Made by a program: the position numbers and the translations under genes. A stretch of DNA of 63,993 nt, filler included, from Fonticula-like sp. SCN 57-25 (Eukaryota): assembly GCA_001724245.1 (NCBI GenBank). It is 3 parts of 3 records of this genome, joined end to end, with 100 filler letters (N's around TTAATTAATTAA, not from the genome) between each part and the next. Parts side by side here need not be neighbours in the genome. Positions count along the whole stretch, not along the records: positions 23,605 to 53,921 come from MEDX01000069.1; 2 more parts are not named here. One strand, given 5' to 3'. This document shows positions 7,080-33,380 of the stretch, piece after piece. The notes beneath the pieces were generated by a model. That model saw nothing but the letters and a program-made list of their open reading frames with translations, was not told the origin of the DNA and searched no databases. How positions within the stretch are numbered: position 1 is the stretch's first letter; the number at the start of each line of letters is the position of its first letter.

Positions 7080-7100
7080 TGCAAACTGGGTCAGTTTGCA
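7080..7100. promoter_or_regulatory. Perfect inverted repeat TGCAAACTG-ggt-CAGTTTGCA in the divergent GTPBP/Ras promoter
   Basis: Read directly from the sequence. Half-sites match the recurrent promoter motif. Confidence 0.55.
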
Positions 7101-7284: not shown

Positions 7285-8681
7285 ATGGGTGCCCCGGTTG
7301 CGGCTCCAAACGAGATGAAAATCGCCGTCATCGGTGCGCCTTTTACAAATGATACGATAAGCTGAAAAGTGTAATAGGCTCTGGTGGAGTTGGAAAGTCG
7401 GCGCTGACGCTTCTGTTTGTCGAGGACGACTTTGTCTCCGAGTATGATCCCACGATCGGTGCGCCTATTTTTTTTTCCTTTTGGTGATGGCTGACGAGCA
7501 TTTCAGAGGACACGTTCCACAAGCAATTCATGGTGGACAATGAAGGTCTGTCTCCATAATTTTAATAGTTCATTGACTAAAACTATACATAGGCGTCTTC
7601 TTGGAGATCCTCGACACGGCGGGCCAGGAGGAGCACAGCACGACGCGCGCGCAATACCTCATGTCCTGCCAGGGCTTTATCGCCGTCTACGCAGTGAACA
7701 GCCGCGCTTCCTACGAAGAAGTGAAAAGCACGCATATATTCATATTTGTTATTTGAATTATACTTTGCTAATGACTGTTGAATTTAAACAGTGCTGTGCA
7801 AGCAGATGCAGGTGCTCAAGGACTCGACGACCGTCCCGATGATCCTCGTCGGCAACAAGATCGACCTCAAGGACGACCGCAAGGTGTCGCCCGAGGAGGC
7901 GCGCGCGTTTGCCGCGTCCCTCAAGGCGGGCTACATGGAGATTTCCGTCAAGGGCAACATAAACGGAACGCTTCCTTTCGACGAGATTGTGCGCCGCATC
8001 CGCGTCCGCCAGCGCGCCGATGCTGCCGCCGCCGCGCAGCCGCCCATGTCCATTCCCGTCAGTGTCGGCGGACCGACCGGCGTGGCAGGGCCCCATCACA
8101 CGCACCACTCCAACGAAGGGTGCGGCCGGCTGACCTTTCCCGCCAATTTTTATGCTTTTTCTGACCACGATGTGCAGACTCCTGGCCATGTTTGCGTACC
8201 TGTTCAGCTGGCTGTCGGGCGTCTTTGCTTTGCTTATTGCAAAGGACTCGCCGTACGTGCGTTTTCATGGCGCGCAGAGCATTGCGCTCTTCATTGTGTT
8301 TTTGCCTTTCTTGATCGTCGCCATCATCATCGACGTCGTGATCAGGGCGACCACGCCAAGGTTTTTCATCTCTGTCGCGGTCCTCATCGCGTGGATCTTT
8401 TACCTTGCTGTTATCATTTACTGCATGGTTCGCGCCTACAGGTGCGCACATTGGGCGCGCCGTATTAGTTTTGCTCGATGCTCATGATGCCGGCCAACTG
8501 CTAGGGGCAACATGCAAAACTGCTACCGCATGAGGGGCGTGTGCAAGCTCGCCGACCTCATGCTCCCCAACCAGGAAAAGTGCGCTTGCAGTTATTTGCT
8601 TTCCTTTACTCATTATGCGACAATAGACCCGCGCAGGCAGCGACCCCCGCGACTCCGCCGCAGCCGCAGCCGTCCGCCTGA
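7285..8681 (+). CDS. Ras-subfamily small GTPase fused to a C-terminal DUF4870/Tic20-like 3-TM domain; no CAAX; 7 introns
   Basis: G1 GSGGVGKS, effector loop YDPTIED, G3 DTAGQE, G4 NKID, G5 EISVK. Intron 8120-8177 joins in frame to [38 protein letters not shown]...RAYRG...CKLAD. Stop TGA at 8679-8681. Confidence 0.85.
7728..7791 (+). other. GC-AG intron in the Ras fusion gene
   Basis: GCACGC...AAACAG. Removal restores [31 protein letters not shown]; the donor matches the GTRCG consensus except at +2. Confidence 0.8.
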
Positions 8682-11740: not shown

Positions 11741-12820
11741 TCAAAGTTCCTTTTTCCCTATACAAGCGATGAAAAGCGCGCTTGTATTTGTGTGCAGCGG
11801 GTGCATTCTAATAGCAAGCGGCAATTCGCTGCTCGCCAGCGCCCCCTCTGGCTTGACGCCCTCTGGCACTGGCACCATGAACGCGTCCTTTGGCCTCATT
11901 TCCTCGAGCAGCCTCTTGATCACGCCCTCGTTCTGCGCCTTTGTGAGCGAACACGTGCTGTAGACGAGCCGCCCGCCCGGCCGCAGCAGCTCAAAGCCCC
12001 TGAGCAGCAGCGCCGCCTGCAGATCGTGCAGCCCATCGAGATCCTGACCCTGCAGAAAATTCTTTGCCGCCTCGTCAGAAGTGCCGCGGCCGCCGCCAAA
12101 GGACTTTACCATGTGCCGCATGGATCCGTCGTGGGTGCACGGCGCGTCGACGAGCACGCGATCGTACAACTGCCCCGTTTGCGGCGCGATGACGGCGAGC
12201 TCGGCGTGGCAGTGCGTAAAGTTGGCGTTGGGGTAGGGGCGCTTGGGGTGCGCGGCGTCCCAGGGCGAGGCGGCGGGGGCTTCCCACGTGAACGTGCGGC
12301 CGTCGGCGACGGACATGCGAAGGCGAGGGACCGGCTGACGAACGAGCTTGAAGCGGCTAAGAAGGGTCTTGCAGGAGGCCATGCGCGTCGTGCTCGAGTC
12401 GACGGCGGTGAGGCTGCCGCGGGCGTCGAGAAGATCGGCCAGCATGGCGAGCTTGGCGCCTGGCGCGCAGCACATGTCGAGCACGTGGTGATGCGGCTGG
12501 ACCATGAGGGCGGCGACGCACACGCCAGAGCTGACGTCCATGCCAATGCAGTCGCCGCGCAGCGAGGGCGCTGTGTGGACGACACCGGGGACAGAGGGCG
12601 GCATCGACAGGAAGGAAGGGAGATACGGGACAGGGACGACATCGACGCCCAGCTCGCTCGACAGCTCCGCGGCAATCGCGATGGGATCACGGCCGGGGCG
12701 GACGCGGACAAAGCGAGGTAGTAAATGCGCATTGTCATATACGCTCGTGTCGATCCCCTGCGCGGAAAGGTACGCGCTCACGGCGGGAGGCAGCACTACG
12801 CGCTCATCGGACGCGGACAT
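11741..12820 (-). CDS. RsmB/NOL1/NOP2/Sun-family RNA cytosine-C5 methyltransferase (intronless)
   Basis: VLDMCCAPGAK, YDRVLVDAPCTHDG, LRPGGRLVYSTCSL, QNE. The upstream ORF extension overlaps WASHC4 exon 1, so ATG 12820 is preferred. Confidence 0.9.
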   Translation of the reverse strand: MSASDERVVLPPAVSAYLSAQGIDTSVYDNAHLLPRFVRVRPGRDPIAIAAELSSELGVDVVPVPYLPSFLSMPPSVPGVVHTAPSLRGDCIGMDVSSGVCVAALMVQPHHHVLDMCCAPGAKLAMLADLLDARGSLTAVDSSTTRMASCKTLLSRFKLVRQPVPRLRMSVADGRTFTWEAPAASPWDAAHPKRPYPNANFTHCHAELAVIAPQTGQLYDRVLVDAPCTHDGSMRHMVKSFGGGRGTSDEAAKNFLQGQDLDGLHDLQAALLLRGFELLRPGGRLVYSTCSLTKAQNEGVIKRLLEEMRPKDAFMVPVPEGVKPEGALASSELPLAIRMHPLHTNTSALFIACIGKKEL

Positions 12821-12847
12821 GTCTCCGGTGTTGACGGGGTCATCCAA

Positions 12848-12887
12848 TGCAAACTGCAAACTTCGTAATGATGCAAACTGCAAACTG
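12848..12887. promoter_or_regulatory. Four TGCAAACT(G) copies in the 137-bp bidirectional promoter between the methyltransferase and WASHC4
   Basis: atgcaaactgcaaact ... atgcaaactgcaaactg. Confidence 0.55.
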
Positions 12888-12957
12888 ACGCCGGTGTGTT
12901 TTTGTTGCTTTGCTTCTTTCCTGCGGCGCCGGACCGACGCTGAGAAAGGAAGCGGCG

Positions 12958-15900
12958 ATGCCTCCGGGTCAACCTGTGAACTCGGGCTGGGGCCAAGCAG
13001 AGTTTGACGATGGCGCTGCCAAAGGTGCGCATTTCTCTTCATTTTGCCGCTGCTTTTTGTAATATGTTTTTCTGACCTGTTTTGGCGTGATTCAGCTGAA
13101 AAGTCGCGCAAGGAGTTTGAGCGCTTCTCCAAGCTGTCCACCGAGTATGCCGACAAGCTTGACGGGATTGCGAACGCGCTTGAGCAGTCGCTCGTGACCG
13201 ATGTCGACCTGAACTACGCGCCGATCCGCGTGGACCTCGTGCCGTACGAGAGCCTCACTGTCCTCCAGCTGATCAACACCAAGAACAAGACGCTCAACAA
13301 GGTGCTCATGGCGCTGTCCAGCCTCTGCATCGAGGTCGAGACGCTCAAGACCGAGGTACATTTTCCTTTTTAGTGTCCTTTTTATCTAACGTGTCTTTTA
13401 TTCAGGCGGTGAACATTTTCTTCCCGCCGCTCGTGACCTACGGTGAGACGCTGCGCGACAATGCCGCGCCCGAGGGCGAATCTCAGGAGCGCATGGGCCG
13501 CATGCTCAGCTTTTTCCAGGACGCCTGCGGCTTTGTGAACCGGTACGCTTATATTATAATGGCAAGTGTCTTTACTGACTTTTTGCTTCACAGTGTGTAT
13601 GCCGCCGTGCGCAACATTCTCCAGCAGCTCGGCGCCCTGTACGTCCCCTCCAAGGCGAACAAGGTCAAGCTCGACATGCAAGGCGTTCACCAGCAGCTTG
13701 TCTTTGAGAAGCTCGCCGACGCCCTCGGCATCCTTCTCACGATGGACACGATCATCAACTCGAACGAGCATCTCCTCGATGACTGGCAGCGCTACGGCAG
13801 CATGATGAGCCTGATCCGCGCCGATCCTCTCCGCGTCGGCCTCGACGGCATGCCGCAGTTCTTCATGCTCGAAAAGATGCTGCTCACCTTTGCTGGCACG
13901 CTGCTTGAGGGCAACATTTTCAACGCGTGCCTCTCGCAGCAGTTTGACGTTGACCGCCTCGTCAGCGTCACGCGCAACATTGCGCTCGCCGCCGAGATGG
14001 ACGTCAACATCCGCGGCTACTTTGCCGCGCTCGGCGCCCGCGTCGGCGAAAGCAACGAGATTGATCAGCGCCAGCGCTTCATTGGCTTCATGGGTCTCTA
14101 CGCCATGTTTACGCGCTTTTACGCGCCCAATGTCGACAAGAAGCTGTTCAAGCAGATCTTTATGACGGTGAAAAAGATTCCGATTGTGCACCTTTACGGA
14201 AACGTTTCGTTCCGCTTTGAGCGCTTCTTTGACGAGCAGCTGCGCGCGGGTGTCCAGCAGGCGGGGCTCAAGACGGTCGAGCTGCGCCAGGCGGTCGTCG
14301 ATCGCGTCAAGCGCTCAGACGACAACATGGCCGCGTACGCCAAGCTCATTTGTTTTCATTTTATGTTGTGTTTTTGATGTGTTTTTGATATGTTTTCCGC
14401 CTCTTTTGCCGCTTTTTGCGCCTTTTCCCGCACTTTTTCGCTGACATTTTCCTTTTCTACAGGACCTTTGACAACCTGTACAACCAGGTTTGCTGCTGGA
14501 TGGTCCGCATGCAGAGCGAGCTCAAGGAAGTCAAGGCGCCCGAGATGCTTGTGACGCGCAGCGCTCTCCTTCTTCAGGGCATCATGCTCGCCGCCGCGCT
14601 CAACCACACCATCAAGGACTCTCTGAGCACTCACCTCGCCACGAATGCGCCGATCAGCAAGCGCATTGCCCGCTGCCTCGCGCGCCTCATTGAGCTGTTA
14701 AAGTCCATTGAAGACTCGTTCAACCGCCACAACATTTCGATTGCGCGCACTCTCCCGCACATCCAGCAGACGATTCTGCTTCAGCTGTACCGCACGGTGA
14801 ACCCCGTCCGCGACCGCATTGCCCTGAACAAGCGCATGAATGACTCTACCATTGACACGCTCGCCGCGCTCGACCTCTTTGTGAGCATGATTGACGGCCC
14901 GGCGACGCGCGACCGCATCATCACCGCCGAGCTCGCGCTCGCGCAAGCGATGCAGCAGCCGATTCTGCGCGACGAGGAGTTGGCGGGAATTCGCGCTGCG
15001 CTGCGCAAGCTTGAGGTCATTTCGACGCTGCAGCTGCGCGTGACTGAGCTGTGCCGCACCGAGTACATTTACTGGAACCGCCAGCTTCTTCCCACGTACT
15101 TTTCCGAGCTGTACGAGTCGCCGCAGGACGCCTTCTGCCTGCAGTACGTCATGTCTGCGATTGAGGACGCGCGCCCGCTTCTCCAGCGCTCCGTTTCCGA
15201 CCCCAAGGAGCTGCTTGACGGCTACGAGCGCGACATCACCGACCTGCTCTTCAGCAACATTGTGACGCGCCTCGCCGACGACATTGAAAAGGACCTTATT
15301 TGGTGCAGCCACCCCGCCGAGATGCGCCAGGAGGACCGCAACCCTTTCAAAGTAGAGCGCCGCGACCTGACGCCGTTCCTGCGCATCAAGCCGCTGCACT
15401 TTTTCGACAAGACCATTGAGATCAAGACCCACGTCACTCACCAGCTTGACCGCAACCTGTACAACCTGACTGCCGTGCGCAGCAGCAGCTGGACGGCGTT
15501 CGCCGACATGCGCAACCTCGCCTTTGAAAAGTACGGCATTGAGATGACCGAGGTTCACCTGCCGGTGCACACGGTCGAGCAGGGCGCCGACGTGCTCGAG
15601 ATCATGCGCAACATTACGAGCTTTGTGGCGAGCTTCAACTACAACATGAACAACCAGATGTTTGTGGAAAAGTCGTCAAACAGCAAGCATCTCGAGACGA
15701 TCAACATTCGCCACGTCGCAAACTCGATTCGCACGCACGGCACCGGCATGATGAACACGACAATCAACGTCACGTACCAGTTCCTGCGCAAAAAGTTCAA
15801 GGTCTTTTCCGAGTTCCTCTACGACGACCACATCAAGTCGCGCCTCATCAAGGAAGCGCGCTACTTCCGCGACAACAAGACGACGCTCAACCAGCGCTTC

Positions 15901-17056: not shown

Positions 17057-17956
17057 CTACTTGAACGCCGGCAGCGCGTTCATCCGCGCCATCTGCCTGA
17101 GCAGCTGGTACACAAACGGGTACCAGTTGTGCTTCCTGCGCACGTTCTCCTTTGCCTCTGCCTCTGCGAGCTCCTCTTCCGCGGCGATGGCGGCGAGCAG
17201 CTCATCTCTCCTGGCGGCCATCTCTGCGGCCTCGTGCGGCTCGACGGCCGTGATCGCCGCCTCGATCGTGGCGATCTCCTCCCTGCACGCCGCGCGCTTG
17301 TCTCGCGTGACGGCCAGCAGCGAGAAGCGCAGCTCGGACGACTCGTACAGCTTCATGCGCTCCTCGATGTGCGGCGCGGCGATGCTCAGCCAGTCGTCAG
17401 CATCGGGGCACGCGCCGAGATCGACGGGGCCGGGAAGGAGGCCGTCCAGCTCGTAGAGGCGGCCGTTCACGGGCACGTACGAGATAAAGTGGAACGCGTC
17501 CTCGGTGCCGCCGCTCTGCTGCTTCTCGTCGACGACCTCGAGGCGCGCAAAGCTGTTGTGCGCGGCGCGGATCGCATCGCTGTTGGTGATGGCGTCGCCC
17601 TTGAGATCAGGGGGAAAGTCGGAGGTGAACTCGCGGAACTGTGCAAGGTCGGTGCCGAGGTCAATGTCGGGGCGGTTAAGCAGGACGCTCAGGATCGCCT
17701 GCGTCGCGCACGCGTTCTGGATGCGCTGCTGCGCGAAAAAGACATTGGCGGGAGCGGGATCCGCCACCACGCGGGGGGCGGAGGACGGGACCCACTTGAA
17801 GAGGAAGATGAGGCCGTAGACGGGGCGGGGGATGTCCGCGTCAGCAAGAGTGTAAATCTCGCGGACCTGCACGTCGCGGACGCCAAAGTCGCGGATAAGC
17901 TCGGTGAACACGCCGGGATCGCTCTCGATCAGGCACCACGACGCAGAGTCGCCCAT
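17057..17956 (-). CDS. UCHL5: Ubiquitin C-terminal hydrolase UCH37/UCHL5 (intronless)
   Basis: WCLIESDPGVFTELI, Cys box QNACATQA, AFHFISY, YELDGL, C-terminal ENVRRKHNW. Confidence 0.95.
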   Translation of the reverse strand: MGDSASWCLIESDPGVFTELIRDFGVRDVQVREIYTLADADIPRPVYGLIFLFKWVPSSAPRVVADPAPANVFFAQQRIQNACATQAILSVLLNRPDIDLGTDLAQFREFTSDFPPDLKGDAITNSDAIRAAHNSFARLEVVDEKQQSGGTEDAFHFISYVPVNGRLYELDGLLPGPVDLGACPDADDWLSIAAPHIEERMKLYESSELRFSLLAVTRDKRAACREEIATIEAAITAVEPHEAAEMAARRDELLAAIAAEEELAEAEAKENVRRKHNWYPFVYQLLRQMARMNALPAFK

Positions 17957-18042
17957 GATGACAAAGTGAAACGCAGAATGGCAGAGTTGAAGGAATCGCA
18001 TGCGATTTTGGGTGCGATTTACATAGGTGTCAGCTCGACAGC

Positions 18043-21000
18043 ATGGAAGCAGGTGTCAAGGCGCTGCTGCAGGGCGCGCTGTCGCCGGTGCAGCAGGAGG
18101 TCGCCGCTTCCGAGGCGGCGCTTCGCAAGGCAGAGGAGGAGCATGAGAGTGCGTCTTTATGCTCTTATGCGCTATACGCTCACACTGCAATAGGCTTTCC
18201 TGCCGTCGTTGCGGGCATCGCGATCAACCGCGCCGAGCCCGTGGGCCTGCGTCAGCTCGCGCTGCTTCTTCTTCAGCAGTACGTGCGCCGCCACTGGACG
18301 GCGCTTTCGGAGCAGTACGTTGAAGGGACCATTGTCCCGTCAGAGGCGACCAAGGCGGCCGTTCGCCAGTCGCTGATCCCCAACCTTGCCGATCCGACGC
18401 ACCGCGTGCGCACCGTGTCGGCGTATGTGCTCGCCAAGATCGCGTACTGGGACTGGCCGGACCACTTTCCTCAGCTCTTCCCCGCGCTCGTTGACTGCCT
18501 CAAGAGCGGCGACGCGAACGCCGTGCACGGCGCGATGCGATGCCTGTCCGAATTCACGAGCGTCATCACGGACCAGCAGATCCCGGTGATCCTGCCTCAG
18601 CTGCTCCCCGAGCTGCTGCACATCGCCACCAACCCGCAGCTCTTTTCGTGCCGCGTGCGCTGCCGCGCCATCTCTGTGCTTCGCGCGTGCCTCACGAGCC
18701 TGTACATGCTGAGCGAGACGCACAAGAGCCAGGTCTCTGCCATGGTCAAGCAGGTGACCAGCCAGTGGCTCCCCGCCTTTACCGCTATCTTGTGCGAACA
18801 CCAATGTCACTTTAGTGTATTCTAACGCGCTTTATATTTGTTTAGCACGCAAATTGGCCCTGTTGGCGCGCCCACTGCCGACGAGAGCGACGGCCTCCTT
18901 CGCATGGAAGTCCTTCAATCGCTTGCTCTCCTCGTCAAATCCTTCCCGCAGTCAGTCAAGGACCTCCCGCCCGCCCTTCTCCAGGTCGTCTGGTCGAGCC
19001 TCGTCACCGCACGTGACGCCTACGTCACCTCTGTCGTGCACTCTGACGACGGCGAAGACGCTTCGTACGACTCTGACGGCGACGCCATCAGCCTCGCCTA
19101 CCAAGTCAGCGCCCTTTTCGACCTTGTCCGCGAGATGAGCGAGCGCAAAAAACTGCAGGCAATGCTTCGCCAGTCGCTCGACACGCTCATATACCTTCTC
19201 ATTGCCTACCTGCAAATCTCTGAAGAGCAAGTATCGTCGTGGCTCTCTGACGTGAACCAGTACTCGCAGGACACGGACGAGAACGAGTACCTTTCCGTGA
19301 GCGTCCGCAGCTCGAGCCAGGAACTTCTCATGACACTCTGCATGTCTTTCACCGCCCCCGCGCTCGTCGCCGTCGTTGCCGCCGTCTCGCGGCACTGCGC
19401 CGAAGCAGTTGAACTGCGCGGTTCGTCCTCGCCCGCCGCGCCGCACTGGTGGAAGCAGCAGGAAGCCGCAATGGCCGCCGTCGGGCTTCTCGCCGAAGAG
19501 CTGAGCGACGCCGCCGACGCCGGCCGCGTCCAGTTTTCCTTTGAGCAGTTTGCGCGCGCCGTCGTCGTGCCGTCGGCGACCGACGCGGCGCACCCATTCC
19601 TGCGCGGGCGCGCGCTCTGGCTCGCCAGCCGCATCACGCCGTCACTGCCCGACGCCATGAGCAGCGCGTTTCTGGATATGGCCGTGCACGCGCTCGAGCC
19701 GTCCGTCGCGCCGGTCGTCCGCGTCGACGCACTGCGCGCTTTAATGAACTTTATGCAGTCGTGCGACGGGACTGAAATTGCGCCGCACGCGCCGCGCCTG
19801 CTTGCTTCGCTGCCGCACTTGGCGGCGTCGGCGAGCGAAGATTTGCTGACTCTGTGTGCTGAAGCGCTTCGCATGTGCATTGCGGTGAGCGGCGAGACGG
19901 CGGTGCAGCACCGCGAGATGCTCGTGCCGTTTGTGCTGCAGCTGTGGGAGCGCGGACGTGACGACCTTATCGCGTCGAGCGCCGTCGTCGACATTGTTGA
20001 TGAGCTGGCGGCGCTGCCGGCGTGCCGCGAGACCCTTTTGCGTGCTGCGCTTCCCACTGTGCTGCACATTCTTCGCACGCCGACATTTGAAGCGGCCGTT
20101 CAGGGCATTGCACTGCAAGTGTTGTGTGCAATGCTGCGCTTTTCGACGACGCCAATTGAAGCTTCCTTGATGACTGACGCGTTCCCGCTCGTCGCGCACA
20201 TTGCAATTACGACGCAGGACGACTCGCAGCTCGTCCACGAGGCCACGGCGTGCCTGCGCTACTTTGTACTCCACGGCGCCGAGCAGATCGCCTCCTGGTC
20301 CTCTATTTCAGCATCTGGTTCCCCTGAAAGTGGCCTGCAAGTGCTCATGAATGTGATTGCACATGAGCTGCGCGCGTCATCCGAAACAGCGACGAGCAAC
20401 GTTGGCGAACTTGTCTTGACTGTCGTGCGTCGCATGGGCGGCCTGTTGGGCGATCTCCTTCCTCAGCTGCTTCGCGCTGTGCTTGACCGCCTCGCCAATG
20501 CGCGCTCCCTCGCGCTGACGCAATCACTTTTGCTCGTCTTTGCGCGCCTGATGCTCGACCATCTCGACGACGTTCTCGCCTTTCTCGTGTCGGTTCGCTA
20601 CCCGACCGACAGCGGCGCTGAGCAGGACGGCTTTCAAGTGCTTATGGAAAAGTGGTGCGAGCACGCGCACGACTTTACGTCTGCGTTCAGCGTCAAGATT
20701 AGCACGCTCGCGCTGCTGCGGCTGTACATGACGCGCAACCCGCGGCTACTTTCCACGACTGTTCCTGGCGACATTCCCGTGCAGGTGAACGAGGGAAGGC
20801 AGCTGAGGTCGAGGACAAAGAAGCGCGCTGAGGAAAGGCCGCGCATCCCATTGGCTGCAAAGCTGCTCAAGACGCTCGTCGGGGAACTCGCGACACTGCT
20901 TGAAAACAAGCACGGCGTGGCGCCGCCGGGTGAAGAAGATGACGGCGATTGGGTCGACAGCGGCGACGAAGAAGATGAAGATGAGGAAGGTGATGACGTG

Positions 21001-24732: not shown

Positions 24733-26291
24733 TCATAACGTTGTTGTTGACGTCTTTTCGTGCTCCGTCTGCTGCGCAACAGCCGCGGCCGGCCCAACCA
24801 TCGCCTCTGCGCCTTCCCCGCTAAGCAGCTGCGTGCCCACCGGCCCGAGCAGCGTCCCATGCTTCTTGAGCGTCCTCGCGACCTCCTCGGCGAGCGCCGG
24901 ATTCCCCGCGTCCATGCACTCGCCGAGCAGCTTCTCGCCCGTCGCCTTGTCGGGCCGCAGCCCGTCCGTGTGCATGAGCCTCAGCACGCGCGGGATCTTG
25001 TCGAGCTGCTTTCCTTCCACAGCCGCGTGCAGCAAAAGGCCGAGGCTGACGGCGTCTGACCGGTAGCGCCCCTTGAACCACATGGCGCGCTTGACTTCGT
25101 ACATTTCGTCCATGACCTCGAAGGCGCGCGCGTGCTCGTTTGTCTTGACGCACGCCTCGAGCATGCTGTTGAAGATGACGCGCGTCGGGAGAGTGAAGGG
25201 GTTCACGCACATCATGTCAAAGTACTCGCGGGCGCGCTGGTAGGAGCCGCTCTTGGCGCTCGCGCGGATCATCTCGTTAAAGGTCCAGACGTCGGGCTTG
25301 AGCTTGTAGTCGGACATGCGGTCAAAGAGACTCTCGGCCATGAAAAAGAGATCGCGCGTGTACGGGTCTGAAAGAAGGAAAGAGGAAAACGGGAAAAAGG
25401 TAAGCAAAGGTGGAAGAGAATGGAGGAAATAGGGCAAAAAGCGTGGTAAAACGGAGCCAAAAAGACAAAAAACAGGTCCAAATTGGTCGTGGCAACATAA
25501 AAAATAACACAAAAATACACATGAAACACTTCCGTAACATAGCCTTCCCTCTACCAATTTGGCAAGAAACTAAACTCCTCGTACCTGCCGTCTTGAAATC
25601 GGACGAGGCCTTCATTTGAAGCGTGCAGCCTCGCATCAGAATCTCAAAAGTGGCCCTCGTGGGCTGCTCGCCAGCGGCCAACAAAGCGCGAAACATTTCA
25701 AAAGCGGCAAAAAGGTCTCCCTACCAGCGCGATGTGCCACGCACGCTCGTTAGCGATCGCCACGCAGGCGATGTATAGCGCACCTTCTTGACGTGGTCGT
25801 AGATCAGCGAATCGTACGTCTGGCCCGCCATCCGCAAAAAAGACTTGAAAAACGACTGCGACGCCTTTACAGTGCGCTCGCCAAGAAACATTTCGTCGAT
25901 GCGGCGGCGCATCTGGTCAAGCGACTCTGTCTTTTGCGACTCGCTGTCCTGCCGCTCCATCATGGCCTTGTAGGCGGATGTGAGCCTTGTGAACGCCTCC
26001 TCATACTACTCAAACGTCAGTTATCAACGTGGTGGCGTGCGCAAAAACGCAAGAGGAAATAAAAGAAAAGGAAGCGGTGCGCACTTTTGGCTTTTCCGCT
26101 TCGGACGGGCATCGATCAGGATGCACCTCCATGGCGCGGCGATAGTAGGCAGCGCGGACGGCCTCGACCGGCGCTTCCGGCTCGATACCAAGAATTTCAT
26201 GAGGCTGGAGCTTGTCGCTTCCCAGAAGCGACGAGTAGCACCTAGCAGCGACTGGGCGCCGCGCAAACCTCGCGAGCCCCAAACGCAGCAT
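24733..26291 (-). CDS. Probable mitochondrial protein with N-terminal J-domain and C-terminal pentatricopeptide repeats (3 introns)
   Basis: Presequence-like MLRLGLARFARRPVAARCYSS. J-domain PHEILGI...VRAAYYRRAMEVHPDR...AFTRLTSAYKAM. PPR motifs PTRATFEILMRG, PDVWTFNEMIRASAKSG, PTRVIFNSMLEAC. Confidence 0.85.
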
Positions 26292-26491: not shown

Positions 26492-28918
26492 TCAGAAAAG
26501 TTGACTGAGAACAACGCCCATGAGCCAGAAGACCACGGAGGCAAGGTATGACCTTGCGAGTGTTGACAGCCTCGAATGGACGGTAATGCCAAAGATGACT
26601 GCGTGCGGCTCCAGGTGGTCCGTATTCAGCATTGACGATATGTGCGAAATGAACGCCTGGAAGGACTTGTAGTCCTCGGTGACCAACTTGCTAATGCTGG
26701 GATGCACCCGATAGATAAACTCGCGCGTGTAGCAAAAGTACGAGTACGAGTGCACAACGAGTGTTTGCGCCGTGTCGCTCTCCAGCAGCTTGGTAATGAG
26801 CGAAAAGTACGTGACCAGGACGACTGCCGCGTAGAGACAGATAAAGATCATGAGCACGCTGAGGGGAATGAGCAGCCCCTGAATATCCCAATCCAGGCTA
26901 GCCGCATTTGCAAGAACGACGGCGAAACACATGATGCTCACACCCAACAGGGCCACCAAAAAGGCCTGAATAGATTTCAGCTCAAAGTTGATGACAAAGC
27001 GGTAGTGGAAACGGCGCGCGCGGAGCCAATCGGCAATGTAGGCGCGGTCCTCGTCAAAGCGGACTTCCACCTCGCGCTCTGAATTGGCCACAGGGCGGTC
27101 TTCGGCCAATGGGAATAGAATGCTGGGGTCAAGAAGCGATGTGAGATGTATCTGCTCCATTAGCGGTTTCTTGAGCGTTGTTGGCGCCTCGATATAAACA
27201 AGACGAAGAATAATCAACATGGAGATGGTCGTCGAAAAACCACAGAGCAAACCAGCTGCCCACAGGTAGCCATTCTCAGCAAAAAGGCCAATTGATTCCA
27301 CGGCGTCCTCACCATACACCTGGTTGAAGAGAAGGAGAAGTAAACTCATAGCGTAGAGGAAAAAGAAGAATACAACGGTAAGCACCATTGATGTGATGGC
27401 GCCGTATCGCAGCTTTAAAAACGAAGCATGATGCTTTAGCTTCTCGTCAGCGTTTGATGACCCAATCGCGACACTGAGGATGCGAGCTGCGTTTGGGTGC
27501 GATTCAAAAAGTTCGCGAGCATGGTCTCGATACGCCTTTGCTGTTGTGCGCGACGGCTGCCAGCCATTTGCGATGGCAACAAAGAGCATCATGCCAATAT
27601 ACCATCCCACTGCCGCATTGTTAAGCGAGATCAATGCAATGCTGCACCCATCGCAATTCTCTGCAAAGTTGGTAAAGGTCTGGATAGGGGAGACGGGGCA
27701 CGTCAGATTGGCGGCAACGTCGAGCGGCAGGTGGACGCGGCAGTGCTGCATGGCGGTTGGTGTAATGGCAAACAGCAGCGCGACCAAAAAACCGCTAATA
27801 ATAATGCCGATCATTTGCATACCGTGGCGCGATTTGAGATAAAACTCTGATCGGTGAAGCGGCGGCGAGTACAGCAAGGCGAAGAGCGCGCGCGGGCTGA
27901 ACCAGCAGGGGGCGTCCTCGTTCTCTTCGCCGATCATGGGCGAAACAGGCAGGTCTGAGTTGAATGAATTGTCGCTCGCCGAAGCCTCAAAGACCTGGTG
28001 GCAGTCGGGGCAGGGGCAGACATTCTGGCCGAGCTCCATGACCATATGAAGATAGTACCGATGCAAGATTGACTCGCGCTGCTCGTCGGCGTGGCGAGAG
28101 TCACACGAGTCATTCAATGGAATACCGCAGGGGCACTCTGTCGCGGGCGTGCGGAAAGAGGCAAAGGTGCTTGCCCTCGGGCGCGGGCTCGTGCCGGCCT
28201 CTTCATCGCCGGGCGGCAGGAGAGGCTCTCTGTTGGTGCTGGGCTTAGGGCCGAAATCATCCTTGTCGTCGATAGGAAGCGACTTGTACTCTGCTGAAAC
28301 CTTTGTAGTGCCACCGGCTTGTTTAAACAGTTGAACCGTCATCAATCTTCGGACAAGTAGCCAAATGACGGCGATGCTGGATAGGAGCATGAGGCCATAC
28401 AGCGGCATAAGGTCGAGCCACGGTTGAAAACCGCTATACGCATTCACATAGGGATTGGCATAGCCCGTTGTGTTGGCGAGGAGGCAATAAAAGTTCAGCT
28501 CGCTTGGCAGAAAAATTTCGCCCAAAGTCTCGTTGACCATTTGGTACCTGGCCGGATCAGTCATGCTGTTGCCGGTGTACGAAGAGTTGAGCACCAAGGA
28601 GACGCCGTCATCGGCAAGGCACGCCTTGTACTTTCCATAGCGATCGCCGCGAAAGACGAAATTAAAAACCAACGTAAATACAACAACGCACACCGGCAAA
28701 AGAATACGAAACTGCGTTGTAAACCCCATTACTTTTGCGGAGCCCAACAGTTGATCCTTGTAGGAGGTGGTGTCGGCTCCGCCTTCGATCGACATCGGGC
28801 GAAGCGGCCTCGCGTCAGCGTTACTCGCGCCCTGCGTCCCGGATGTGACAAATATTTCGTCGAGTCCACTACCATCCGAGATGATGCCCTGCCTACGCTG
28901 TTGCGTTTTGGTCGCCAT
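26492..28918 (-). CDS. Intronless ~808-aa multipass membrane protein; candidate PHTF-like / 7TM ion-channel (gustatory receptor-like) family member
   Basis: Long uninterrupted ORF with about 9 hydrophobic helices. The family call rests on IHLTS, YIADWLRARRF, SIQAFLVALLG and the terminal VIFGITV...SQLF, and is tentative. Confidence 0.6.
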   Translation of the reverse strand: MATKTQQRRQGIISDGSGLDEIFVTSGTQGASNADARPLRPMSIEGGADTTSYKDQLLGSAKVMGFTTQFRILLPVCVVVFTLVFNFVFRGDRYGKYKACLADDGVSLVLNSSYTGNSMTDPARYQMVNETLGEIFLPSELNFYCLLANTTGYANPYVNAYSGFQPWLDLMPLYGLMLLSSIAVIWLLVRRLMTVQLFKQAGGTTKVSAEYKSLPIDDKDDFGPKPSTNREPLLPPGDEEAGTSPRPRASTFASFRTPATECPCGIPLNDSCDSRHADEQRESILHRYYLHMVMELGQNVCPCPDCHQVFEASASDNSFNSDLPVSPMIGEENEDAPCWFSPRALFALLYSPPLHRSEFYLKSRHGMQMIGIIISGFLVALLFAITPTAMQHCRVHLPLDVAANLTCPVSPIQTFTNFAENCDGCSIALISLNNAAVGWYIGMMLFVAIANGWQPSRTTAKAYRDHARELFESHPNAARILSVAIGSSNADEKLKHHASFLKLRYGAITSMVLTVVFFFFLYAMSLLLLLFNQVYGEDAVESIGLFAENGYLWAAGLLCGFSTTISMLIILRLVYIEAPTTLKKPLMEQIHLTSLLDPSILFPLAEDRPVANSEREVEVRFDEDRAYIADWLRARRFHYRFVINFELKSIQAFLVALLGVSIMCFAVVLANAASLDWDIQGLLIPLSVLMIFICLYAAVVLVTYFSLITKLLESDTAQTLVVHSYSYFCYTREFIYRVHPSISKLVTEDYKSFQAFISHISSMLNTDHLEPHAVIFGITVHSRLSTLARSYLASVVFWLMGVVLSQLF

Positions 28919-29141: not shown

Positions 29142-31055
29142 TCACCGCGAATCCATTTTGGGCCGCTTCCTGTCTCGAACAAGCGACGAGTTGAGCAATT
29201 CCGAAGGCAGCGGCGTGACCTGACCCGCAGGAAGCGCCTTAAGCCGATCGAGCAGCTCGGGAAAAATCGACTTGTTCTCATTGTTGATAAAGGAATAGGC
29301 CCAGCCCGTCGCTCCCAGCCGACCCGCGCGACCCACTTGGTGAATGTACTCGTCCACCGACAGAGGCATATCAAAAAGGATTACGACCTTGACGCCCTCG
29401 ATATCAACGCCCCTCGAAAGCACACCGGTAGAAACGATAATTGGTACCCTGCCTTGGGTAAAGTCGGTTAGAGCGGCGAGGCGCTCAGTCTGCGGTCTAT
29501 CTCCGTGTATAAAAGTGCTCTCGATCCCCGTCTTTACCTTGATCTGGAAGAAATACCGGGGAAGAGTGAGCAAAGCAAACATCAGCAAGTATTCAAGTCA
29601 TACCGCTTCTGAAAGGAATTGAGCGCCGAGCTTTGACTGGACAAAAATAATGGCGGGAAATTTGACATTTTTCGATTGAAGTAGCTGCATCAGCTGCTTC
29701 CGCTTGCTTACTTCCTCGACCCACAAAATCGTCTGTCGCACTGCAGCCGGCGGCGCGCCAACACGCTCCCCCACACTAATGCGCGCCGCCTTTGTTCCGT
29801 CGCCGCGCATCATTCGCTTCGCTACCTTGGCCGTGTCGCTGCTGATGGTAGCCGACGCAAGGATGCGGCGCGCATCTCGCGGGACGTACGACATGATGAC
29901 TTCCATCGCGTGCTCGAATCCCCCTTTTATAATTTCGTCAATCTCGTCAATAACAACGGCGTTCAAGCACGAAAGGTCGAGCGCGCCGTCCTGCCTGTCA
30001 ACGATCTCCACGAGTCGCCCCGGCGTGGCGACGACGACCTGCGGCCGGCGGCGCAGCCGGTGCAGCTGATTCGGTAACGGCAGCCCGCCGATGATGAGCG
30101 CCGTGCGCATGACCGGGTGGCCACGCATGAGCGCCTTGAACTGCTCCTCTACCTGAATACACAGCTCTCGCCGAGGCGTGATGACCAGTACGCGCACGTT
30201 GGAGCGCAGCTGCACCGGGTCGGCCGATAGCTGTGCCACCAATGGGATCACAAAGGCGCCCGTCTTGCCGCTGCCGGTTGGAGAGGACACTAGCGCGTCC
30301 ATGTCGCAGAGGATTGTGGGTATGGCCTGCATCTGAACGGGCGTCGGCGAAACAAAGCCGGCCGAGGCGAGGTTTGCCTCGAGGAAGGAGGGGAAGCCGC
30401 ACTGGGAAAACTCCCATATGGGGCGAGGGACGGCGGCGCCCGAAGCTGTGTCGATCTGAAAGACGTGGCGAATAAAAGTAATGTACTCGTCGGCGGCCTG
30501 GCGAACGTCGTCGGGCTCGCGGTAAAGAAACGTCGTCTGTGCGCTCGCAGGGACGCCGGCGCCCTTTGAGGATCGGAAGCGCTCCAAATCGACACGCTTG
30601 CATTCGATACTGCAGACGTCGGCGTCCGTCTCGTCGCTAATGTACTCGCCGTATCTCCCGCACACAAAGCAGCGTGGCTCGCCGGTCACCGCCGCGCGCT
30701 GCTCAATAGAGTAGATCTTGACCGGCTCCAGGGGACTCGCGTCCTCGGCGATGTTCGAGGCGGCAGGCTCAGACGATGGCGCGTCGGCGCCTGGATTCGC
30801 CGCAGGCGGTGCCGCTTCAGTCACCTCTGCGTCACTCTTCACTTCAACAAGCGGTGCCTCTTCCACTTTGTCGACTTCCTTCTCCTCTGGCGACAGAGGT
30901 AGGTCTTGAGTAGCTGCAGCTTGCTCCATCGTGTTCGGTTTCGCCTTGTCAGCACTTTGCCCATCCCTCGCGTCCCTCGTCGGTGGATCCCGCGTAGGCT
31001 GCGCTTTGCCCAACCGCACCGCGCGCGGAATAAAACCAGACGGCATGCCGCTCAT
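29142..31055 (-). CDS. DDX59: DEAD-box helicase DDX59 with zf-HIT domain (start 31055 or 31046; 1 intron)
   Basis: FIPRAV N-terminus, [69 protein letters not shown]. Confidence 0.93.
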
Positions 31056-32207
31056 TCTCGTGTGCGGGCAGCCCTGCAGGTACGCGGAATCCTCGGCTCA
31101 CTGGCCCGCGCGCCACCTAACTTGCTGACTCACGGTGGTTGGGTCGTGTCTGCAGTGGCAAGTCGCACCGCACTGAGCAGATCAGCACATACCTGCGCGG
31201 CCAAGGGCATCGCGTGCTAATTATCGGCGTTGGCGGCGACGGTGACACAGAGTCCACGCGCCACCTGCGGCGCGCGGTCATCTATGGCACCGCCGAGGAG
31301 GAGAAGCGCGCGCGTGGCGCCATCATGGCCGCCGTCGAGCGCCTCTTGTCGCGCGATGTCTACGTCATCGTGGACTGGCTCAACTATATCAAGGGGTTCC
31401 GCTACCAGCTCTTTTGCGTGGCAAAGTCGTGCAGCACACACTACTGCGTCGTACGCTACCTTACTCTTTCACGCGCTGTTGCGCTCAGCTTGCCTACCTA
31501 GGTCGAGTGCGGCGCCACAAAAGAGGTGGCCCATGCGCGGAATAATGCGCGCGACGCCGACCCCTACTCGCCGCAAATGTACGTCGTGTCCTCTTCTATT
31601 TATGTTGTTGCTCAGCTTTTACGCAGCCTCGACGAGCTGTGGTCTCGTTACGAGCACCCGAACCCGATGAACCGGTGGGACAAGCCGCATTTTGCCGTGG
31701 CGGACTCTGACGAAGCGCCGCCGCTCGCCGACATTTCCACGGCACTGACGACAGGCGTCGTGCAGCCCAACCTCGCCACACGGCCGGTGCGTCGTTTATA
31801 GACGTCCCTTTCTGTTGCTGACACCCAGCAGACGCCGGTGACCGAGACCAACTTTCTCTACGAGCTGGACCGCATCACGCAAGAGGTGGCGCAGGCCGTC
31901 ACCGACGCACAAAAGATCCCCGGCGCGGGCGTCGTCACGGTGCCCAACAGCGACCGACCTATATCCGCTCATTCTCTCTTTCTTGTGTTTTACATGTCCT
32001 ATTTTTTGTTGTGCATGTGCTGCCGATCCCTCTGTTGCGTTAGTTCCTTGACTCGCACACGTTAGGCTAACGCGTCAGGTAACCGTCCCCGAGCTTCATC
32101 GCATCCGCCGGCAGTTCCTCGCCATCAACAAGGTCAACACGATCACGGACATTTCCAGGATCGGCGGAGCCTTTGTCGACTACCTCAACACGGCGATTGA
32201 CCAGTGA
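31045..32207 (+). CDS. KTI12: Elongator-associated protein KTI12/DRL1 (5 introns, the last U12-type)
   Basis: [82 protein letters not shown]. Confidence 0.95.
31961..32060 (+). other. U12-type (minor spliceosome) AT-AC intron
   Basis: Donor ATATCC, branch site TTCCTTGAC at 32044-32052, terminal AC. Removal gives PNSDRP|VRLTRQVTVPELHRIRRQF. Confidence 0.88.
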
Positions 32208-32290
32208 TGGGCTCGTGCCCTCAGTTTTGATGTAATCTTTATTGTACATGCACTATGCCAAGCCTATGCCGTTTAGATATATCTTATCGC

Positions 32291-33047
32291 CTAGCGGTTA
32301 ATCTCCTTGCACTTTGAGGCGGCGACCGTGTCCACGTCCTTGATCCTGTCGTCGACGATCTTCTGGATGGCCTTTTCAGCGCGCTTGACGTCGTCCTTGG
32401 GGAGCGCCTTGCTATGCTTGTTGAGGTCCTTGAGCGCGGCCTGCCGCAGGTTGCGGACGCTCACGCGGCACTTTTCCGCGTGCTTCTCGACCATCTTGAC
32501 CATGCTGTCGCGGTACTCGGTCGTCGGCCGCGGGATCGGCACGCGGATGGCGTTCTTGTCCACAACAGGGTTCAGGTTCAGGCCGGCCGACTGAATGCTC
32601 GAGGACACAACGCCCGTCTGCGTCGGGTCAAACACGTTCACCATCAGCGTCTGGGGGTCTTTGACGAGCACCTGTGCGAGGCGCGCCAGAGGAGTGCGCT
32701 TCTCATTGATCGTCACAGTCACAGAGTCAAGAAGCGCTACAGAAGATATAAATTATTAGTACAAACATAAAAGAGGAATGACCAGACCAAGGCGCACAGG
32801 GAGAGGCGACGCCGACGCGGAGCTGCGAGAGATCGGACTGGAGGATCTCCATCGACTTGAGGCCCTTGGACGAGAGCGGCTTGAGGATCTCGGCGTCAAT
32901 GTCGACGCTCGGGCCATCGTCTTCATCCTTCTTCGAGTCCTTCTTTTTTGAAGCAAGGAAACGCCCGCCAACGGCCACAGAGGGCGCCGAGGCCGCCGGG
33001 AAGGCACGCGCAAGCGTCCACGCAGCACCCGAGCCGCGCGCCAGCAT
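32291..33047 (-). CDS. MRRF: Mitochondrial ribosome recycling factor (1 intron)
   Basis: Presequence; LRVGVASP, PLARLAQV, IQSAGLNLNP, IRVPIPRPTTEYR, RVSVRNLRQ. Confidence 0.92.
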
Positions 33048-33380
33048 CCTCGATCACGTGACTACTATGCAAACTACCCTGCAAACTGGACCGGTATAAA
33101 GTCAACCGCGCCGACGACCTAATCGCCCAGTGTCGCCTGTCCGTTGCTGTGGATCGCGCTTGCTGTGCCCTTGCTGTTGTCTGGAGCGCCTTTTATTGTG
33201 CACCTGCCTATTCATATTGGGCTGAAACTCTCTTTATTTTCATTTTGGCGCGAGGTCAGACTTGCGCCGTCCCCTGACCAAGTTTGCGAATTTTGTCTGC
33301 GTCATCCCCAGGTGGACGCGTCGAGTTTTTATTGAAGAGCGTGAAAGTCTCCTTGTACACGCGCTTGCTCTCTGCCAGCC

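Follow-up and report, generated by a model that had tools for sequence, protein, structure and literature searches.

Opposite-strand open reading frames with overlapping start codons have been described in Enterocytozoon bieneusi, for which two such pairs are reported and termed "potential" (PMC2607024). In human, 582 pairs of genes overlap at their 5′ ends through long untranslated regions or alternative starts (PMC9917990), coding overlaps are rare, with 51 pairs counted (PMC2335118), and regulation through RNA duplexes and R-loops has been demonstrated for the INO80E/HIRIP3 pair (PMC11890862). Transcripts that start inside a neighboring gene are known from Encephalitozoon cuniculi (PMC3629993), and 441 overlapping genes are reported for Giardia muris (PMC7641422). 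Among the titles listed in our search on overlapping ATGs of named eukaryotic genes, we found no case besides E. bieneusi, and no paper naming both DDX59 and KTI12 was found in the literature searched.

Here we analyze a stretch of 63,993 nucleotides, filler included, from the genome of Fonticula-like sp. SCN 57-25 (GCA_001724245.1), hereafter the window. Based on its sequence, we posit that the window's DDX59 and KTI12 genes form a genuine head-to-head pair in which the two start codons probably share 2 nt of a single CATG (31044–31047), which would contain the KTI12 ATG (plus strand, 31045–31047) and the most likely DDX59 ATG (minus strand, 31046–31044). The coding overlap hinges on a DDX59 start at 31046 or 31055, as is probable given the candidate start codons and homologues discussed below.

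Identity and Setting of the Two Genes

KTI12 functions in Elongator-dependent tRNA modification. The KTI12 gene of the window (31045–32207, plus strand) encodes a predicted protein of 280 residues in six exons (31045–31079, 31156–31450, 31502–31578, 31627–31786, 31832–31960, and 32061–32207), three of whose frames match Pfam PF08433. The spliced model is open, matches fungal KTI12 proteins along its entire length (47% identity to Phycomyces KTI12 over residues 1–278), and covers all of PF08433. Its P-loop is located at residue 8, as in 34 of 39 homologues, so that the start at 31045, where the sequence-only reading had placed it and where an ATG is present, is fixed by homology. The DDX59 gene (29142–31046, minus strand) encodes 614 residues if translated from 31046, in two exons (31046–29604 and 29543–29142) separated by a GT-AG intron (29603–29544). 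Its spliced model is likewise open and contains a zf-HIT domain before the DEAD and Helicase_C domains; the zf-HIT match (E 5e-4) is under the Pfam cut-off, and the zf-HIT cysteines are invariant in a multiple sequence alignment. The closest named homologues are DDX59/RH41 proteins, RH41 being the plant name. Pfam domains, named homologues, and intact spliced models thus bear out the identities first assigned to this divergent, opposite-strand pair. Of the 90 strain variants, 40 are listed, and 38 of these could be classed, the remaining two lying in KTI12 intron 1; the listed variants in the DDX59 core comprise 17 synonymous and no non-synonymous changes, and among them the core is under purifying selection.

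The genome is compact and intron-rich in the window, with a median intron-like length of 52 nt. Named KTI12 matches are nearly all fungal, the best non-self match of the window's UCH37 is 58% identical, and a quick DDX59 tree places the protein near Umbelopsis sequences, on a long branch and without starred support. A search of 1.84 billion representatives gave no close relative, the best non-self matches listed being 39–46% identical, and scans of viral contigs found neither DDX59 nor KTI12. We surveyed 55 DDX59 loci on metagenome contigs, left out two, and found KTI12 in the flanks of none of the 53 examined; this says little given that several of the flanks are short and that all of these relatives are distant.

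Six other divergent gene pairs in the window are separated by gaps of 86–454 nt, including UCH37/importin-9 (86 nt between start codons, 17956–18043) and NSUN/WASHC4 (137 nt between start codons, 12820–12958). TGCAAAC, a candidate promoter element, is present 16 times in the window, often paired (sites at 1760, 1787, 7080–7100, 12848–12885, 33068–33086, and 48294), and 7 of 16 upstream regions contain it. It is absent from 30700–31450, and because the UCH37/importin-9 gap lacks it too, this absence is uninformative. Downstream, KTI12 converges with a ribosome recycling factor gene with 83 nt between stop codons (32207–32291), and the 3′ ends of the two genes may overlap. DDX59 is followed on its own strand by an intronless open reading frame for an 808-residue multi-pass membrane protein (26492–28918), which matches no Pfam family and has only weak Atlas look-alikes, ciliate membrane proteins. 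Elsewhere in the window, Ras GTPase exons are followed by a DUF4870 membrane domain (7285–8480, plus strand), and DnaJ and PPR exons follow one another along the minus strand (24736–26291) and may belong to one gene.

Start Context and the Palindrome

Our reference for start context consists of 16 hand-picked, unconfirmed starts in the window, which score between −0.07 and 5.3. A purine at −3 and a C or G at −1 are present in 16 of 16, and nine starts are part of a CATG. In a CATG overlap the −1 C of each gene is supplied by the ATG of its partner and the −3 base by the middle of the partner's second codon. The CCG (Pro) second codon shared by KTI12 and DDX59 therefore provides both genes with a good start context, and together with the CATG overlap it generates a 10-bp palindrome (31041–31050).

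This palindrome is perfect, as the sequence-only reading had observed, and the meaning attached to it there dissolves into the CATG overlap and the two CCG codons; its length also differs between strains, being 12 bp in X1 and X3, which carry a variant at 31040, and 10 bp in X2 and the window. We considered and rejected a functional hairpin or binding site, given the variable length, a frequency no rarer than chance, and ordinary folding. The window contains 99 N-free 10-bp palindromes versus a mean of 69 (range 58–87) in 20 shuffles, and no unusual folding was found around this one (z of −1.33 and +1.70). The identical 10-mer occurs again at 13846, inside the WASHC4 coding region; 0.2 occurrences are expected, and a count of two was reached in 3 of 100 shuffles.

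Candidate Start Codons and the N-Terminal Motif of DDX59

The DDX59 reading frame contains three in-frame minus-strand ATGs, at 31055, 31046, and 30929. The ATG at 31046 has a context score of 2.28 and fits the local consensus. The upstream ATG (31053–31055) has the worst context of the candidates (score −5.5), with an A at −1 that is found in none of the 16 reference starts, and is unlikely to be the main start, which makes 2 nt the most likely length of the overlap. Thus, although both ATGs proposed for DDX59 in the sequence-only reading are present, we retain only the one at 31046 as a probable start. The internal ATG (30927–30929) has the best context of the three (score 3.44). A further codon (31011–31013) is TTG in the window and an in-frame ATG in contigs of X1, X2, and X3, in a poor context with a pyrimidine at −3.

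The family's N-terminal motif, here FIPRAVRL (31011–31034, minus strand), lies in frame four codons after the 31046 ATG and 121 residues before zf-HIT, compared with a homologue median of 112.5, and is the top score of 127,940 six-frame positions. Our homologue survey examined 160 proteins, three possibly human ones left out, of which 60 contain zf-HIT. The motif is present in 32 of these 60 and absent from 28; it is present in 32 of the 40 with a zf-HIT starting no earlier than residue 60. Among the 32 motif-bearing homologues, the motif is at position 2–3 in 27 and directly preceded by Met in 28; P0062, P0085, and P0096 resemble the window's DDX59 in having no Met directly before it. Sequence, reading frame, and spacing indicate that the motif of the window's DDX59 is a true homologue of that of the family. 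The claim that this motif makes the start hard to move therefore stands as to homology and is too strong as to fixity, given the 28 homologues without it, its position not directly after Met, and the better context at 30929.

Strain Variation across the Junction

Contigs were used to examine the junction, rather than raw reads. Within X1, which may be the source sample, two haplotypes are present at equal depth (8.8 and 8.7 over 30771–30959; 7.8 and 8.1 over 31357–31537); they are 11% apart in the DDX59 linker and may represent a diploid or two strains.

A block spanning the start codons (30930–31079) has few strain differences and is a candidate for the KTI12 promoter and 5′ untranslated region within DDX59 codons 1–39. 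The listed differences number 2 in 150 nt in the block versus 21 in 189 nt in the adjacent linker (Fisher p 3e-4), and X2 record 14 carries three differences beyond those listed, which gives the block at most 4; since contigs drop alleles, these counts are to be read with caution. DDX59 codons 1–39 have no synonymous difference among the listed variants, where about 5 are expected (rough P of 0.006), an invariance that would be expected if the KTI12 promoter were located there; that both of the variants listed for these codons are non-synonymous counts against the overlap. KTI12 intron 1 (31080–31155, plus strand; GT-AG, 76 nt, GC 0.64), a possible site of the DDX59 transcription start, accepts indels between strains. 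Together, the few differences in the block and the indels in the intron point to regulatory sequence in 30930–31079, whichever DDX59 start holds.

The contigs also bear on the internal ATG. X1 record 4 starts at 30930 and overlaps by 30 nt with records 2 and 3, whose shared end is 30959; record 3 is identical to the window. Based on this geometry, record 2 should differ at 30929, where the internal ATG has its first base. One X1 haplotype therefore probably carries an altered form of this ATG, which would then not be obligatory. The altered haplotype may carry the 31013 ATG, so a start downstream of the motif survives as an explanation, and in each haplotype seen, one or more in-frame ATGs located after the motif are seemingly kept.

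Alternatives to Overlapping Start Codons

The principal alternative is a tight bidirectional promoter, with transcription of DDX59 starting within 30930–31044 and its translation at 30929, or at 31013 wherever this codon reads ATG; the motif would be a recent untranslated relic maintained by promoter constraint, and the coding sequences would not overlap. This explanation would account for the strong context at 30929, the end of the strain-conserved block beside that ATG, the many zf-HIT homologues that lack the motif, and the apparent retention of one downstream ATG per haplotype. A start at 30929 would leave a gap of 115 nt, within the range of the six other divergent pairs, and the coding-versus-upstream score of 30930–31046 is intermediate (−8.3), with 2 of 16 upstream controls scoring as high and a stop-free frame found in 4 of 16. 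Against it, the motif is intact, in frame, and at the family's spacing behind an ATG in good context, the GC content of 30930–31046 (0.64) is above those of all six true divergent gaps (0.48–0.55), and the DDX59 frame of this segment scores best of the six frames. In addition, 30929 is probably mutated in one haplotype, and its sole substitute has a pyrimidine at −3, as do none of the 16 reference starts. We consider this alternative rather unlikely, and retain overlapping start codons as the preferred reading.

Two other explanations have far less in their favor. DDX59 might start at 31055, with a coding overlap of 11 nt, or be reached through an unseen upstream exon: the frame is open to 31097 and 31056–31097 scores positive in it. 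Given the context at 31055 described above, and that reading the sequence by eye revealed no conspicuous splice acceptor upstream of the motif, both are very unlikely. An assembly misjoin might be suspected because the palindrome is located right at the junction, the junction is documented by contigs only, and X1, whose record 4 (30930–31099) crosses it, may be the source sample. Yet X2 record 14 (30915–31139), from another study and of a divergent haplotype, spans it with 130 nt on one side and 84 nt on the other, a contig of X3 crosses as judged by its from_end values, and no joints are listed. With contigs from two studies besides the likely source spanning the junction (X2 listed, X3 by inference), the concern that the palindrome marks a misjoin is answered at the level of contigs; a misjoin is unlikely, and we assign it only the slightest probability.

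A Predicted U12-Type Intron in KTI12

The last intron of KTI12 (31961–32060, plus strand) has the characteristics of a U12-type intron, with AT-AC ends, an ATATCC donor, and a TCCTTRAC-type branch site (TTCCTTGAC, 32044–32052) close to its 3′ end. The donor departs from the U12 consensus at +7/+8, where it has GC. Among 36 splice choices that keep the frame open, this AT-AC choice scores highest with a homologue HMM (295.8 bits versus 292.0 for the next and 289.2 for the best GT-AG choice), and removing the intron restores the conserved KTI12 protein. It is the only paired candidate of seven U12 donor-like sites in the window, which contains approximately 30–35 genes; the loose U12 pattern alone turns up in 7 of 40 shuffles. 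An Rfam scan of the window gave no matches, minor snRNAs included. The intron would be evidence for a minor spliceosome in this lineage.

Two homologues suggest that the intron is old. At the alignment column of the U12-type intron, the KTI12 protein model of Paraglomus (P0047) runs off into ISF, and that of Geosiphon (P0046) has a gap just before this column; the P0047 runoff resembles read-through of a U12 donor, and the two protein models give an indirect hint of a conserved, mis-annotated minor intron. A U2-type branch site and AG acceptor are located just inside the last exon of KTI12 (32065–32078, plus strand), and an in-frame bypass of the U12-type intron by the major spliceosome, with weak GT or GC donors, is possible. 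KTI12 is absent from the matches listed in a literature search on KTI12 with minor introns, and the intron may appear in the supplements of minor-intron surveys.

Knockout of human DDX59 results in retention of U12 introns (PMC12095793), and the profile of DDX59 resembles those of minor-spliceosome proteins (PMC9887622). Taken together with the KTI12 intron, a minor-splicing factor may share its start with a likely client. This allows a selected feedback circuit to be proposed, in which DDX59 is needed to splice the U12-type intron of KTI12 and the overlapping KTI12 transcript tunes DDX59 through interference, an R-loop, or a 5′ RNA duplex, the latter two having a demonstrated counterpart in INO80E/HIRIP3 (PMC11890862). 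The KTI12 pre-mRNA would be a local sensor of minor-splicing capacity; with DDX59 locked to a gene that bears a U12-type intron, antisense KTI12 transcription would feed the state of minor splicing back onto DDX59, a cis autoregulation of the minor spliceosome that would couple U12 splicing to Elongator-dependent tRNA modification. The solitary U12-type candidate of the window being in the partner of DDX59 favors such a circuit; however, the link was spotted post hoc in one genome, and at a density of approximately 0.27% of introns in species rich in minor introns (PMC10639083), a chance of a few percent for a U12 intron in DDX59's partner suffices to explain it. The intron is also about 900 nt from the overlap, and the lack of the pairing at the 53 distant loci counts against the circuit. 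We regard it as unlikely, though the KTI12 intron makes it directly testable.

A Model for the Overlap

Returning to the reading that we prefer, in which the start codons overlap, we propose that compaction brought DDX59 and KTI12 together and that the overlap is the extreme case, with no gap left, of a genome-wide pressure toward short divergent gaps, which measure 86–454 nt in the six other pairs. In DDX59, the Met that most homologues have just before the motif would have been lost, and the gene would have taken up an antisense ATG that was a free by-product of the C at −1 of the KTI12 start. The CATG geometry would suit both genes, each partner supplying the other's −1 C and −3 purine. The KTI12 transcription start would lie inside DDX59 codons, where no plus-strand ATG is found in 30779–31044, and the DDX59 transcription start inside the first exon, the first intron, or the early second exon of KTI12, where no minus-strand ATG is found in 31056–31187. 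If the overlapping ATGs are used, the transcription starts must be crossed, and the 5′ ends of the KTI12 and DDX59 RNAs would be complementary. The earlier proposal that the promoter and 5′ untranslated region of each gene lie within the coding region of the other would thus hold for KTI12, and needs qualification for DDX59, whose transcription start could sit in KTI12 intron 1. Some coupling, by shared open chromatin or polymerase interference, would follow; it was probably not selected for but simply tolerated.

Use of both ATGs would leave two conserved housekeeping genes, in an intron-rich eukaryote, with zero intergenic DNA between them and an obligatory 5′ antisense overlap, and would make the locus a clean natural test of the tolerance for crossed promoters. 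Because the preferred start context is partly self-complementary, the start of one gene would be a ready-made start for its partner, and CATG overlaps may for this reason recur in unrelated eukaryotes. On this explanation, the divergent overlaps of compact genomes should show a peak at 2 nt.

Comparison with Described Systems

Overlapping start codons are a known, rare layout, here apparently with a minor-splicing helper beside the carrier of a minor intron. Human DDX59 (PMC12095793) has an orthologous domain layout, and a U12-type intron is predicted in the genome studied here; the function has been demonstrated in human cells only. The locus resembles INO80E/HIRIP3 (PMC11890862) and DLG4/VLCAD (PMC9917990) in its predicted crossed transcription starts and complementary 5′ ends, and DLG4/VLCAD is reported to include a 5′ untranslated region that runs into the coding sequence of the partner. 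Those pairs overlap at the RNA level, through long untranslated regions or alternative starts, whereas here the ATGs themselves would overlap, such that RNA overlap would be obligatory if both are used, and the arrangement is predicted from DNA. As in E. cuniculi (PMC3629993) and G. muris (PMC7641422), the overlap may be a result of compaction, although the genome studied here is intron-rich and, with its divergent gaps of 86–454 nt, less extreme. The putative overlap also resembles the E. bieneusi pairs (PMC2607024), whose genes are divergent too and whose start codons overlap in a compact genome on the fungal side of eukaryotes. In contrast to those pairs, which include hypothetical proteins, both genes described here are conserved and named; both have introns, and family motifs constrain where they start.
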